From positions 1 to 63,333 of the forward strand of contig CAZNYB010000010.1 in assembly GCA_964577155.1 (NCBI GenBank): a stretch of 63,333 bases of DNA, given 5' to 3'. Under the pieces are notes generated by a model that worked only from the letters and a program-made list of their open reading frames with translations, did no database searches and was not told where the DNA came from. A program made the translations under genes and the position numbers. Positions 19,069 through 46,433 of the stretch are shown one piece after another. The first letter of the stretch is position 1, and each line of letters starts with the position of its first letter. Origin of the DNA: an uncultured Thermomicrobiales bacterium. Lineage in GTDB: Bacteria > Chloroflexota > Chloroflexia > Thermomicrobiales > CFX8.

Positions 19069-19210
19069 ATTCACCGGTAGGAACTGGACGTCTAGTTCTC
19101 ATTAGCTTCGTACGTACGCATCTATCGGTTGTGTACGTACATCTATTCTGATAAAATTTCTCCGTTGGAAATCACCATTCTGTGACTCAAAGTCCAGCCT
19201 TGGGAGGCGT

Positions 19211-42171: not shown

Positions 42172-43179
42172 TTGACCGATCTGAAGACGAGAAAAACCGC
42201 GCTCATCACCGGGATAACAGGTCAGGATGGCTCCTACCTGGCTGAGTTCTTATTGGAGAAAAATTACCGGGTGATCGGAATGATGCGACGCACCAGCAGT
42301 GAAACACTGGGACGAATTGGCCATCTCCTGGATCGCATTGAACTGGTCTACGGCGATCTGCTCGAACAGAACTCACTCATTGATCTCGTCCGTGAATACC
42401 AGCCAGATGAGATATACAACCTTGCCGCGCAGTCTTTTGTCCCTACATCGTTCAAGCAGCCAGTCCTCACCGCGGAGTTCACCGCACTGGGCGTAACCCG
42501 GGTGCTCGAGGCTATTCGGCAGATAAAACCTGATGCTCGCTTCTACCAGGCTTCTTCGTCTGAGATGTTCGGCAAAGTCCGTGAAGTGCCTCAGACGGAG
42601 GAAACGCCTTTCTACCCTCGGTCACCATACGGCGTGGCCAAGGTCTACGGTCATCTCATGACTATTAACTACCGTGAGTCATACGATCTCTTCGCTGTTT
42701 CGGGGATACTCTTCAATCATGAGAGCCCACGGCGGGGGCTTGAGTTCGTCACCAGAAAAGTTACCTACGGTGTGGCAAGAATAAAAGCCGGGCTCGACAG
42801 CGAGTTACGGCTGGGAAATCTAGATGCGCTCAGAGACTGGGGATACGCGCCGGACTACGTGCGGGCGATGTGGCTCATGCTCCAGCAGGATGATCCCAAA
42901 GAATATGTCGTCGCCTCAGGGACAATGCATTCGGTTCGGGATTTGTGCAAAGTAGCATTCAATGTTGCCAGTCTGAACTGGGAAGAATTTGTCGTTGTCG
43001 ACCCAAGATTCTTTCGACCGGCGGAAGTCGAATTGCTGCAAGGAGATGCTGAGAAGGCTCGCTCGGAGCTAGGCTGGGCTCCTGAAACATCCTTTGAAGA
43101 GATGATCGCCGAGATGGTTGCTTCAGACATCGAACTCGTGCGAGAACATCCAAGAGCCATGTGGCCTGTCGTCGTTTAG
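42172..43179 (+). CDS. gmd: GDP-mannose 4,6-dehydratase
   Basis: [54 protein letters not shown] start after GGAAGGG. Confidence 0.96.
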
Positions 43180-44675
43180 TCGTTTGCGCTCGGTTCGACG
43201 GCAGGAGGAGAAGCCGGCGCGATTGACTCGGCCGGTGCCGGATCGTACGGTTTGAAGGCAAAGCGTTGTTTCTCTCGCCGGTCGCGCTCCCCAACAATGA
43301 GCGTTTCAGCCATGGCAGCTTCATCGGAGAGCTTGGCCTGGGTTATCACTTTGATTCCAGCGGCGGTCGCCAGGCTAGCTGCAAAACTATCAGCTGTCAC
43401 AACATCAATCGGTGTGTCCTGGCTTACAGCAAGCATGGCCAACTGCTGAAGTACCGGTAACTCGTCCCAACCAAGCGCGCCTGGACCGATAAGTAGAACG
43501 ATATGCTCTCGCCGGTCGGTGCTCAGAACTCCCTTGACTTCCTCCAGATCGCCGGGCTGCTTGACGGCAAGTACCCGCCTTGGCAGCGGGTTGCCGAGCT
43601 CGAAATAGACAGCCTGAATGATAATTTTTATAGTAGCCACCGCCGGTACCGCCAGTAGCAGACCAAGCATACCGAAGACTTGCGCGCCAGCAAGGACAGC
43701 AAAAATAACCAGCACAGGGTGAACCCGGACGATCCGGCCAATAAGTTGTGGAATAACGAAGTGGTCCTCGAGCATCCGTAAAACGAAGTAGGTGATGGCT
43801 ACGACGACGGCAAGTTCGACCTGAGTCCAGCCGAATGGAGCGTGCCCCTGAGACAGAGCCACGGTCACCGCCGCTGTTCCGGCAATCCATGGACCAATGA
43901 TCGGGATCAGTTCAAGAATGCCGGTCGCAATTGCCAGGGCGAGCGCATTCTCAACATCATATATACGCAGCGCAACGTAGGTTGATACCGACATGATGGC
44001 GAAGAGGATGACCTGGCCACGTATATATGCGCCAAGCGTCGCGTTTACCTGCTTGCCGACCCGGTCGATCGTGGCACGGTACCGACGTGGTGAGAGAATC
44101 CGAGATTGCCGCAGTATCTTGTCGCCATGGAGCAAGAAATAAAATGTGACAAGGAAATACACCAGGATATGCACTGCCAGTTCGACAGTATGCAGTACAA
44201 GAGGTACAGCGCGTTCTCCGAATCGGCCAACAAAATCCGCGACGATCTCATCAATGCGTTCGTTGAGATCACGCGTGTCGAATTCAATTCCGCCGATTCG
44301 AATAGTCTCATCGGCGATGAGCTCATTGCGAGCATTTTGAACTGAGTCAGGCAGCGAGTTGATCAGCCCCCGGCCCTGGTCCAGTACCACCGGTCCCAAA
44401 AAAATGATCAGCAGCGTGATGCTGGCGATGAAAACGACGTAGAGTCCAACTACAACGACGACACGTGGAAGACGCAACCATTGTTCAAGTTTCGCGACGA
44501 TTGGAAACAGAATATAGGCAGTGATCATCGCCCAGAGGAACGGCGCAAGGATCCCTGAAACGAGCGAGATAAAAAGGAAAGCAGCAACCGCGCCAAGCAG
44601 CAAGAGTACCGGCAGTATCCGGGACTCTCGTAATCGGTCAACGGGATGCATCAGTGCTCCTGTATCGGAGTCCAT
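43176..44675 (-). CDS. AI-2E family transporter with an extra C-terminal soluble domain
   Basis: [48 protein letters not shown]; then ~140 extra residues. Confidence 0.88.
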
Positions 44676-44778
44676 ACCAGCGGCTAGTACACATAATCAT
44701 CCGCTCCTCAGCATTGCCGATTGTAGCAGAAAGCCGCTGGTTCACCGCGAAAGTGAGCATTAAATTTTCCGTGACATG

Positions 44779-44807
44779 TTGACAAACAAGAACACTTGTT
44801 CTATAGT
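44779..44807 (+). promoter_or_regulatory. Near-consensus sigma70 promoter
   Basis: TTGACA (44779-84), 17-bp spacer, TATAGT (44802-07). Confidence 0.8.
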
Positions 44808-44836
44808 GTACGTACATATGTTCGGATCACTTGTTC
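44789..44836. promoter_or_regulatory. Three tandem LexA (SOS/Cheo-type) boxes
   Basis: AGAAC-ACTT-GTTCT (44789-802, perfect, in the promoter spacer), GTAC-ATAT-GTTC (44812-23), GATC-ACTT-GTTC (44825-36). Confidence 0.8.
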
Positions 44837-44868
44837 GTATTTGAAGAAAACGTAGAACGGAACCAAAA

Positions 44869-45063
44869 ATGGCTCAAATACTCTCACGACAGATTGCTCT
44901 CATGATCGTCATCGCCAGTTGCATGATTGTCGTCCTGCTTGTGCTCGCTTCGGGACTCAATGTCGACTTCGGCGCGGTATCAAGCCAGGCAGCCCCCCTG
45001 GCTCTGATTTGCGCGGCAGCATTGACCTTCCTCATCTTCAATCCGTTCGACGCTCAATCGTGA
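44869..45063 (+). CDS. Small two-TM membrane protein, putatively SOS-induced
   Basis: 64 aa with two hydrophobic helices; first ORF downstream of the LexA-boxed promoter. Confidence 0.7.
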   Translation: MAQILSRQIALMIVIASCMIVVLLVLASGLNVDFGAVSSQAAPLALICAAALTFLIFNPFDAQS

Positions 45064-45341
45064 TGTGCAAACCGGTTCAACTCACGCATTGATGAAGCTG
45101 ATGTTGCTCTGTTGCACTAGAATTCGCTGACTGGTATTCAAGTTCGACGATCTCGAGTGGTGCAATCACGAAAAGTTCAAACGCAACCCAGCTACCAACG
45201 ACCCAATCAGCGACCAAACCAGACAGAGCAACATCACTCCCGGCGCTGTTAAAAAAATACCGGGACTATCGTTACGTTCTCTTCGGCACCCTGTTCACCC
45301 AGAGCGGTCAGTGGATACTCAACATTTCTCTCGGCTGGCTG

Positions 45342-46433
45342 ATGCTGGAATTGACCAATTCAGCGTTCATGGTTGGCCTGATTGGTTTTGCGGCTGGCGT
45401 TCCAGTCCTTATTATCTCAATACCAACCGGAGCGATCCTCGACCGGGTCAACCGAAAGACGGTTCTGTTGGCGACCCAAACGGTGCTGATGCTGGTTGGT
45501 GTGATGCTAGCTCTGCTGGTGGTCGCCGGCATTGTTCAGCCCTGGCACTTACTCGTTGGGGCTATCCTGAACGGATCACTTATGGCGGTCGCTGCCGCGA
45601 CCAGACAGACGATCGTTCCGCATGCCGTCGCAGCGTCCGATCTGCCGCGAGCAATGGGAACCCTTGCGGCCGGACAGAATGCCGCGCGCATTCTGGGACC
45701 TTCGGTTGCCGGTGTCATCATTGGTGTTTTCGGAGTTGCCGGTTCGTTCGTATTTCAGGCTTCGGTCCTGGCGCTGGCGTGTCTGCTGACCCTGCCACTT
45801 TCCTCAGCAATTTCAAGGCGAAAAGCGTCGATACAATCTGCGAACAAGCTCACGGCGGGCTTACGCTACATCCACGACAATCCGTTGATGTTGAGCCTGA
45901 TTCTGATCGGGGCATTTCCGATGTTGTTTGCCTTCCCGTACTTGACATTACTACCGATCTTTGCGCGCGACATTCTCCAGATCGGGCCAGATGGTCTCGG
46001 TATCTTGATGACCGCGAGTGGCATCGGAGCTGTCAGCGGTGGATTGCTCACTTCAGTGATAGCCGATCGAATACAGCGTCTGGGCCTGTTCATTATCCTG
46101 GGCATGGCTGGCTACAGCGTTATTCTCACCTCATTTGCATTTGCTAACTGGACCCTCGCTGCGCTGATGCTGCTCGCGCTTTCAAGCGCCACCAGTTCGC
46201 TTTGCCTGTCATTGACCCACACCTTGATCCAGACCCACGTCGAGGACGACGTTCGTGGTCGAGTCACCGGTGTCATGATGCTCACTACAGGACTGTTTTC
46301 CATCGGTGCGCTGCCGATGGGCATGGTTGCGAGTTATTTCGGGGCACAGGTTGCCGTCGGTCTTGGGGCAGCAATTTCGGCATGTTGCGTTCTCCTTGTC
46401 GGACTGAAATCTACGGAATTGCGGGCGATCTAG
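45342..46433 (+). CDS. MFS transporter (DHA3/MFS_3-like); true start probably upstream
   Basis: GAILDRVNRK motif A, ARILGPSVAG, RGRVTG. The in-frame upstream sequence encodes the missing TM1 (see findings). Confidence 0.85.
   Translation: MLELTNSAFMVGLIGFAAGVPVLIISIPTGAILDRVNRKTVLLATQTVLMLVGVMLALLVVAGIVQPWHLLVGAILNGSLMAVAAATRQTIVPHAVAASDLPRAMGTLAAGQNAARILGPSVAGVIIGVFGVAGSFVFQASVLALACLLTLPLSSAISRRKASIQSANKLTAGLRYIHDNPLMLSLILIGAFPMLFAFPYLTLLPIFARDILQIGPDGLGILMTASGIGAVSGGLLTSVIADRIQRLGLFIILGMAGYSVILTSFAFANWTLAALMLLALSSATSSLCLSLTHTLIQTHVEDDVRGRVTGVMMLTTGLFSIGALPMGMVASYFGAQVAVGLGAAISACCVLLVGLKSTELRAI

Follow-up and report, generated by a model that had tools for sequence, protein, structure and literature searches.

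We analysed a 63,333-nucleotide (nt) stretch of DNA, referred to here as the window, from an uncultured Thermomicrobiales bacterium of the phylum Chloroflexota (GenBank assembly GCA_964577155.1, contig CAZNYB010000010.1). The window is contig C10 of a 186-contig, 4.19-Mb genome with 55% G+C. The locus under study is a promoter with three boxes resembling operators of LexA, the repressor of the SOS response to DNA damage, followed by an open reading frame (ORF) for a small, almost entirely hydrophobic protein of 64 amino acids (aa). An earlier note on this DNA had proposed that the ORF encodes a novel SOS effector, and direct reading confirmed the promoter, the boxes and the ORF at the positions it gave (Table 1). 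The promoter, TTGACA-17-TATAGT, agrees with the consensus at 11 of 12 positions and was the sole plus-strand match of a consensus scan within 44500-45500. Operator 1 lies inside the 17-nt spacer, and operators 2 and 3 follow directly 3' of the -10 hexamer.

Table 1. Features of the boxed promoter, the small gene and its neighbours, by position in the window; operators and membrane topology are predicted.
Feature	Position	Strand	Sequence	Remark
-35 hexamer	44779-44784	+	TTGACA	direct reading and promoter scan
-10 hexamer	44802-44807	+	TATAGT	17-nt spacer; first T is the last base of operator 1
LexA operator 1 (box 1)	44789-44802		AGAACACTTGTTCT	perfect AGAAC-N4-GTTCT palindrome within the promoter spacer
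LexA operator 2 (box 2)	44812-44823		GTACATATGTTC	one mismatch to GAAC-N4-GTTC
Operator 2 as feature	44811-44824		cGTACATATGTTCg	one core mismatch; covers the start site
LexA operator 3 (box 3)	44825-44836		GATCACTTGTTC	one mismatch to GAAC-N4-GTTC
Operator 3 as feature	44824-44837		gGATCACTTGTTCg	one core mismatch; in the leader, abuts operator 2
10-bp palindrome	44807-44816		TGTACGTACA	over the expected transcription start
Gene for 64-aa two-helix membrane protein	44869-45063	+		stop codon included
AI-2E family transporter gene	43176-44675	-		Pfam AI-2E_transport, E-value 5.7e-62; divergent
MFS_3 transporter gene	45252-46433	+		Pfam MFS_3, E-value 7e-46; downstream

The reading of the boxes as LexA operators agrees with the genome's own recA and lexA promoters, whose motif they match. 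The sequence AGAACAGGTGTTCT lies 45 nt upstream of recA. The lexA gene was located on contig C63 (TIGR00498, 178.8 bits against a cut-off of 110.95), and its box, AGAACAGATGTTCG, differs from AGAAC-N4-GTTCT by one flanking base. Genome-wide, AGAAC-N4-GTTCT occurs in 13 copies where about 3 are expected, and GAAC-N4-GTTC in 124 copies against an expected number of about 60. Extended boxes lie in intergenic DNA directly 5' of the Pfam-confirmed genes for RecA, a DinB polymerase (IMS+IMS_C), an ImuB-like IMS protein and RuvB, and also directly 5' of those for DnaN, a DinB-family protein and an AlkZ-like glycosylase. Further extended boxes precede a macro-domain protein gene and a Phd/PIN pair, and one-mismatch variants precede the genes for PriA, a Tag-like glycosylase, a glyoxalase and a DrrA-like ABC ATPase. 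The identical box was present at recA in all five relatives checked, drawn from both of the families that carry the small gene (see below). On these sequence grounds, AGAAC-N4-GTTCT is the SOS box of this genome. GAAC-N4-GTTC was reportedly demonstrated earlier as the LexA motif of Dehalococcoides, which also belongs to the Chloroflexota. It is likewise given as the LexA motif of Gram-positive bacteria (PMC3323433).

We scored the boxes with a symmetric weight matrix made from 13 sites (12 perfect ones plus lexA's own), from which the small-gene locus was excluded. Box 1 reached 21.5 bits and rank 16 genome-wide, next to lexA's own operator with 21.3 bits and rank 17; box 2 reached 11.5 bits (rank 46). 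Among the 29 sites of at least 15 bits, the small-gene promoter is the only one with two extra sites (at least 4.5 bits) within 50 nt, and just one other site has a single extra one within that distance. The small gene is also the only case in this genome of a small hydrophobic multi-helix product encoded beside a strong box. The number of operators suggests that repression is tighter here than for the other SOS genes of the genome, and we consider it very likely, judging from the promoter, that the small gene is under LexA (SOS) control.

The boxed promoter proved to be conserved together with the gene. We searched the DNA pattern GTTCTA-N4-6-GTACGTAC-N4-GTTCG in 185,579 species genomes and obtained 34 matches, 33 of which precede a member of the small-protein family (hidden Markov model E-values from 9e-31 to 7e-8). 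The records holding these 33 are labelled Thermomicrobiales, Thermomicrobiaceae, Chloroflexia, Chloroflexi, Nitrolancea, Sphaerobacter or Thermalbibacter longus CFH 74404. The 34th match, in a record labelled beta proteobacterium, has neither the promoter nor the ORF and was discarded as a chance hit. Once duplicates had been removed, 44 distinct loci of the small gene were available. All 44 keep a TTGAC[AGT] -35 hexamer and a perfect GAAC-N4-GTTC in the promoter spacer. Counting from the -35 hexamer to the ATG and allowing at most one mismatch, we found two boxes in 19 loci, three in 21 and four in 4; the check suggested in the earlier note, whether homologues retain upstream boxes, came out positive at every locus, each having at least two. 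A further box lies just upstream of the -35 hexamer in 7 of the 44.

The second box is present throughout, although in one genus it is a perfect box placed 8 nt further downstream, and the third (at most one mismatch) occurs in 25 of the 44 loci, the remaining ones retaining a GTTC half-site alone. Column information averages 1.21 bits across promoter and operators, compared with 0.23 in the 25 nt upstream. The operator layout is conserved more than the protein itself, in which G29 and P43 are the sole invariant residues across 28 aligned members, with Q8 and Q40 nearly so. When a double-box pattern was searched in five genomes of groups in which the gene was not found, only one lexA promoter and one chance site were returned, and no analogous small membrane gene was seen in those five. 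The densest array seen belongs to two Sphaerobacter-labelled records and one other genome (L055, L060 and L141), where four boxes with at most one mismatch were counted: besides box 1 in the spacer, three boxes abut one another and extend up to the ribosome-binding site.

Homologues of the 64-aa ORF were found throughout its home family. A six-frame search recovered one in each of the 19 other genomes of this family, representing 8 other genera, at 38-56% identity, and in all 20 home-family loci an ATG occupies the homologous position and opens a frame of 61-65 codons. The ratio of nonsynonymous to synonymous substitution rates (dN/dS, Nei-Gojobori) was 0.07-0.17 for the five closest pairs, and its median across all pairs with finite dS (170 of 190) was 0.34. 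The same six-frame search of 41 genomes from four other families yielded nothing convincing (best E-value outside the home family, 0.013); this single-sequence search missed the second family altogether. A home-family profile gave weak matches (E-values 2e-5 to 6e-3) in 8 of 33 genomes of that second family, and inspection showed all eight to be 56-62-aa two-helix ORFs 3' of the same boxed promoter. Profile matches in three other families (L042-L044) were rejected as spurious, since the open frames that contain them run to 78, 165 and 466 aa and the boxes are lacking.

It might be supposed that the ORF is fortuitous and that the promoter serves an untranslated leader or the downstream genes, given that short hydrophobic ORFs are prone to over-calling and that the ribosome-binding site is weak in this genome. 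However, every one of the 44 distinct loci has a homologous ATG followed by 56-65 open codons, close pairs show dN/dS values far below 1, two residues are invariant across the 28 members, and the genes downstream are not conserved. Such a reading is barely credible, and sequence comparison brings it close to refuted. By the same comparison, the 64-aa ORF is a genuine gene, present in one copy and subject to purifying selection. Of the refuting outcomes named in the earlier note, neither a lack of homologues or of purifying selection nor a different motif at the lexA and recA promoters was observed.

For an order-wide count, we applied a joint 28-sequence profile to all 192 genomes of the order. 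It matched all 19 genomes of the home family (f1) besides the window's own, and 27 of 45 genomes of the second family (f3), with one match per genome wherever the gene was found, the single-copy state of the window's genome included. There was no match in f2 (0 of 7 genomes), f4 (0 of 108) or f5 (0 of 12, two of them flagged as unpublished, G047 and G031, and used for no other result). These absence counts depend on the query, because a profile is known to miss diverged members: one family profile overlooked at least one true member, a gene with four boxes that was recovered via the promoter pattern. The designation of the protein as specific to Chloroflexota fails if a phylum-wide family is meant, since within a single order the gene turned up in two families but not in three further ones. 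In the protein tree, the home family falls on one side of a branch with support 90/90 and genera cluster, a pattern that fits vertical inheritance.

An exhaustive HMMER search of 1.84 billion representative proteins returned 34 matches at an E-value of at most 0.001, and a word-indexed protein search returned 37 clusters, none of them with a Pfam domain. Twelve of the 37 are named, 11 as 'hypothetical protein' (or 'Uncharacterize…') and one by an evident mislabel. The description of the ORF as unannotated needs amending for the homologues, some of which public records do list as 'hypothetical protein'. Among the carriers are the cultured strain Thermalbibacter longus CFH 74404 and records that bear the labels Sphaerobacter and Nitrolancea. 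A search of sequencing runs for the locus gave six, all of them DNA or presumed DNA and three possibly from the source sample, and no RNA run.

The product is predicted to be a two-helix membrane hairpin with both ends inside. AlphaFold2, run on the 28-sequence alignment, placed helices at residues 2-29 and 34-57 (mean predicted local distance difference test score, 72.6; predicted template modelling score, 0.38), and both helices are rich in small residues. The N-terminal stub carries on average 1.04 lysine and arginine residues and no aspartate or glutamate, the loop 0.21 and 0.82, respectively, and the C-terminal tail 1.21 and 1.36. Because of this charge pattern and the positive-inside rule, both ends are placed in the cytoplasm and about 10 residues would face outward. 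A Pfam scan with E-values up to 1 produced only a chance PIG-F match (0.32), and neither LysM nor any other domain was found. NCBIfam gave nothing below an E-value of 0.0029, Foldseek gave no match in the PDB at E-values up to 10, and in the protein atlas the nearest entries were unnamed Chloroflexota clusters (0.86-0.87) and DUF2964 (0.86), all under the level that counts.

In its size and its two-helix topology with both ends inside, the protein resembles class II holins and pinholins, and lysis functions of prophages are typically SOS-controlled, so that a domesticated holin-like (pinholin-type) prophage remnant retained under LexA control comes to mind. We regard this as very improbable. 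In PHROGs, only 4 of the 28 members gave a match, a weak one (best E-value 0.0021) to a family lacking annotation; no endolysin, spanin or other phage gene is adjacent in the loci read, where the neighbours are transporters, argG or a helicase gene; and the gene occupies a single conserved chromosomal locus with vertical descent.

The genes flanking the small gene vary more than its promoter. The divergent AI-2E gene is the neighbour in 28 of the 41 loci whose upstream sequence reaches 350 nt or more, in both families, at 35-104 nt from the -35 hexamer of the small gene. On the other side, where 27 loci extend far enough, the MFS_3 gene follows in 10; the place after the small gene is otherwise taken by argG (5 loci), by a solute-binding protein gene or by an ORF without a Pfam match, and in the second family the next gene is convergent in 6 of the 8 loci read. 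Given these varying neighbours, the small gene is the constant target of the boxed promoter. In the window, no terminator-like site was found between the small ORF and the MFS_3 gene, which is possibly read through from the small-gene promoter. Four loci of one home-family genus (L019-L022) have G+C-rich terminator-like hairpins between the two genes, which suggests that the small gene is largely monocistronic in that genus.

The earlier note had raised co-regulation of both neighbours. For the MFS_3 gene, this can be at best partial in view of the counts above; for the AI-2E gene, the divergent arrangement is indeed frequent, but a divergent promoter could not be recognised in 27 of the 28 loci. 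A functional variant of the same idea is that the small protein is an SOS-controlled accessory or regulatory subunit of the AI-2E protein or the MFS_3 exporter that tunes export or ion flux during damage. The close divergent AI-2E gene in both families and the MFS_3 gene without an intervening terminator in the window speak for this account, and the DrrA-like ABC ATPase gene, which also lies behind a LexA-like site, means that export may belong to the regulon. Against this, the AI-2E gene is lacking in 13 of 41 loci and the MFS_3 gene in 17 of 27, elsewhere it is argG, a solute-binding protein gene or a convergent gene that comes next, hairpins follow the small ORF in one genus, and a neighbourhood kept by descent is weak evidence for partnership. 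We consider a transporter subunit distinctly unlikely.

The start of the MFS_3 gene is peculiar in the window. From an in-frame stop near 45095 to an ATG at 45342, there is no ATG, GTG or TTG, and the conserved N-terminal motif KKYRDYRYVLFG starts at 45252, before this first canonical start. Most relatives have an ATG within about 10 codons 5' of the motif, where the window has CTC at the aligned position. Either the gene uses an unusual start (CTG at 45246 or an upstream ATC), or its first helix has been lost.

The promoter region holds two further elements. The palindrome TGTACGTACA over the expected transcription start occurs in 36 copies in the genome, compared with about 3 expected (other examples lie at window positions 19132 and 63291). 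Of 34 usable copies, 17 have a TAnnnT hexamer whose end lies 0-6 nt upstream or overlaps the palindrome by one base (control positions, 8%), and 9 of the 34 additionally have a -35 hexamer with at least 4 of 6 matches (control positions, 1%). It is a genome-wide element adjoining promoters and is not particular to the small-gene locus; it may act as a promoter element at the start site or be recognised by another factor. The sequence GTACGTAC is retained in 42 of 44 small-gene promoters of both families, even where the second LexA box is shifted. Closer to the gene, two direct GAAC half-sites (GAACgGAAC) lie at 44855-44863, 6-14 nt 5' of the ATG, where most relatives have AGGAG, and a lone GAAC at the ribosome-binding position is also kept in some relatives from two other genera.

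Beyond the small gene, the boxes outline a first predicted LexA regulon for this genome. It comprises RecA, LexA, RuvB, DinB, the ImuB-like protein, PriA, DnaN, the AlkZ-like, DinB-family and Tag-like proteins, the macro-domain protein, the glyoxalase, a PNPOx-like protein, the DrrA-like ABC ATPase and the Phd/PIN toxin-antitoxin pair, which adjoins a large AAA_19 protein (contigs C13, C63, C41, C76, C45, C15, C44, C23, C35, C1, C24, C34, C25, C130 and C67). Sites also precede two ORFs that we take, from our own reading and without a Pfam check, to be SMC-like (C174:3570) and ribonucleotide-reductase-like (C132:1428). In a genome of another family of the order (G027, locus L142), the lexA promoter carries a pair of boxes separated by 7 nt, and a small ORF for a soluble product, of 55 or 102 aa depending on the frame, diverges from lexA; that place holds no small membrane gene. 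In genome G006 (contig C2, about 132202-132995, L148/L149), the RecA match falls into two pieces in different frames, covering profile positions 1-100 and 104-262, which may reflect a frameshift in the assembly or in the gene.

In the explanation that we favour, the constant product of the LexA-repressed unit would be an inner-membrane protein of 56-65 aa with two transmembrane helices and a loop of about 10 residues outside. In the undamaged cell, LexA dimers would occupy the strong spacer operator and one to three weaker tandem operators over the start site and leader, and with all of these filled, the gene would be shut more tightly than any other SOS gene of the genome. Upon DNA damage, RecA-stimulated self-cleavage of LexA would free the promoter, leading to a burst of protein that is inserted into the membrane. 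These repression and induction steps are drawn from the sequence together with the established LexA/RecA mechanism. The protein would then act inside the membrane, with the late division machinery (septal wall synthesis) as its target, so that division is delayed during DNA repair.

By analogy with SidA, YneA, SosA and ChiZ, unrelated small membrane proteins that act in this way in other phyla, an SOS checkpoint effector of this lineage is the most likely single reading of the protein, and we put its probability at roughly 0.4. It is ranked first because the gene is single-copy and vertically inherited, because no other small multi-helix hydrophobic product lies by a strong box in the genome, and because small integral membrane proteins that stop division at a late step have been called a widespread SOS device (PMC13396833).

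The features that speak for tight control would also suit a membrane toxin of the TisB/DinQ type, in which the hairpin oligomerises and dissipates the proton motive force, leading to dormancy or tolerance after heavy damage. The protein is very small and nearly all hydrophobic, with small residues abundant in its helices; it lacks an extracytoplasmic domain that could contact wall enzymes, and its promoter is the most tightly operated of the regulon, which is typical of harmful products such as those of tisB and the colicin genes. Yet several observations make a toxin rather unlikely. A sigma-70-like antisense promoter in or after the ORF was not seen in 40 of 43 loci, a result that also supports the checkpoint reading, although a non-consensus promoter or a trans-acting RNA would escape this search. 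Rfam has no RNA match at the locus. The leader is short and filled with operators, and most relatives have a good AGGAG site at its end; signs of the control at the RNA level by which type I systems are defined are thus not seen. In addition, no Pfam toxin family was matched, and the gene is single-copy, vertical and under purifying selection over two families, whereas type I toxins are usually patchy and multi-copy.

Several points weigh against a checkpoint effector of the kind proposed. At the level of the locus, the ribosome-binding site is weak here, with GGAG, GAGG and AGGA all absent within 18 nt (one of them is present in 29 of 44 loci), and box 3, which the earlier note had placed and scored for mismatches correctly, is weak on its own, reaching 4.8 bits and no rank in this genome; its support lies in its conservation in relatives. 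The small gene is on a different contig (C10) from lexA (C63), and the ORF upstream of lexA on the opposite strand is one of 784 aa. The joint profile detected the gene in 0 of 127 genomes from three other families of the order and in 0 of 11 from one second-family genus; the gene is therefore not indispensable for an SOS response. Finally, going by its sequence and predicted structure, the protein is unlike every known SOS division inhibitor, having two helices, no extracytoplasmic domain, no LysM and no sequence relative.

Weighing both sides, we tentatively propose, at somewhat less than even odds, that two Thermomicrobiales families have their own SOS checkpoint protein with a new architecture: a membrane hairpin without a soluble or wall-binding domain, silenced by up to four or five LexA operators, that would arrest septal wall synthesis or growth solely via intramembrane contacts.

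Small SOS-induced membrane proteins that stop growth or division are known in Proteobacteria, Firmicutes and Actinobacteria; they are mutually unrelated and must be sought in each lineage separately. The earlier note knew of none described for Chloroflexota, and the literature that we searched, which takes in few subscription journals, likewise contains nothing on this gene or on an SOS effector of Thermomicrobiales. The locus offers a sharply defined and testable candidate: a single-copy orphan gene whose operator architecture is conserved better than its protein sequence, and the best candidate in two Thermomicrobiales families for a damage-induced brake on growth or division. Should the checkpoint reading hold, this would be the first DNA-damage effector defined in Chloroflexota and a minimal probe of the poorly known division machinery of the phylum; if the protein inhibits division, a bare helical hairpin would suffice to arrest that machinery. 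Should it be a toxin instead, it would be a type I-like toxin under transcriptional control alone. In either case, the LexA motif and a first regulon, with the genes listed above, are fixed for this group. The FtsW gene of the genome was identified between MurD and MurC.

Among known systems, the closest in kind are the damage-induced division inhibitors of monoderm bacteria, YneA of Bacillus subtilis, ChiZ (Rv2719c) of Mycobacterium tuberculosis and SosA of Staphylococcus aureus, which are, like the present protein, small, lineage-specific integral membrane proteins. YneA and SosA are reported to be LexA-repressed via GAAC-N4-GTTC operators, and all three to block a late division step, YneA by binding FtsW via its transmembrane helix (PMC13396833, PMC6851548). 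Gram-positive SOS division inhibitors are characterised as single-helix proteins encoded beside lexA (PMC6851548). The differences are structural as well as genomic. YneA, ChiZ and SosA have one helix and a functional extracytoplasmic C-terminal part, with LysM in YneA and ChiZ, whereas the present protein is predicted to be a two-helix hairpin that exposes about 10 residues, and it lacks LysM and any other Pfam domain; yneA and sosA adjoin lexA, whereas the present gene lies on another contig. No sequence similarity to the three was detected with Pfam, NCBIfam or the exhaustive HMMER search.

SidA of Caulobacter crescentus, an inner-membrane division inhibitor of 29 aa that is SOS-induced, and DidA are tiny hydrophobic proteins with hardly any soluble domain that act within the membrane, and the present protein likewise lacks a soluble domain. 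SidA is a single helix of half the size and is not homologous to it, and the SidA operator is of the alphaproteobacterial direct-repeat type. According to PMC13396833, SidA and DidA target FtsW or FtsN rather than FtsZ, and SidA is LexA-controlled.

TisB of Escherichia coli, a type I toxin of 29 aa, is small and hydrophobic and is made under SOS control from a promoter with a strong LexA operator, as is predicted for the present gene. It is harmful if freely expressed and is restrained by the IstR-1 small RNA and a structured leader. The present protein differs in its two helices, its single-copy occurrence over two families and, as described above, the antisense promoter and Rfam results. TisB has been termed a dormancy-inducing membrane toxin (PMC11575346). 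Class II holins and pinholins, such as S21 of phage 21, are alike in size, number of helices and location of both ends, and are set apart by the phage context and significant PHROG match that the present gene lacks. Since the protein does not share the structural features of the Gram-positive inhibitors and is homologous to none of these proteins, we do not assign it to any named family. Its likeness to the class of YneA, SosA, ChiZ and SidA extends as far as its predicted control and its size.

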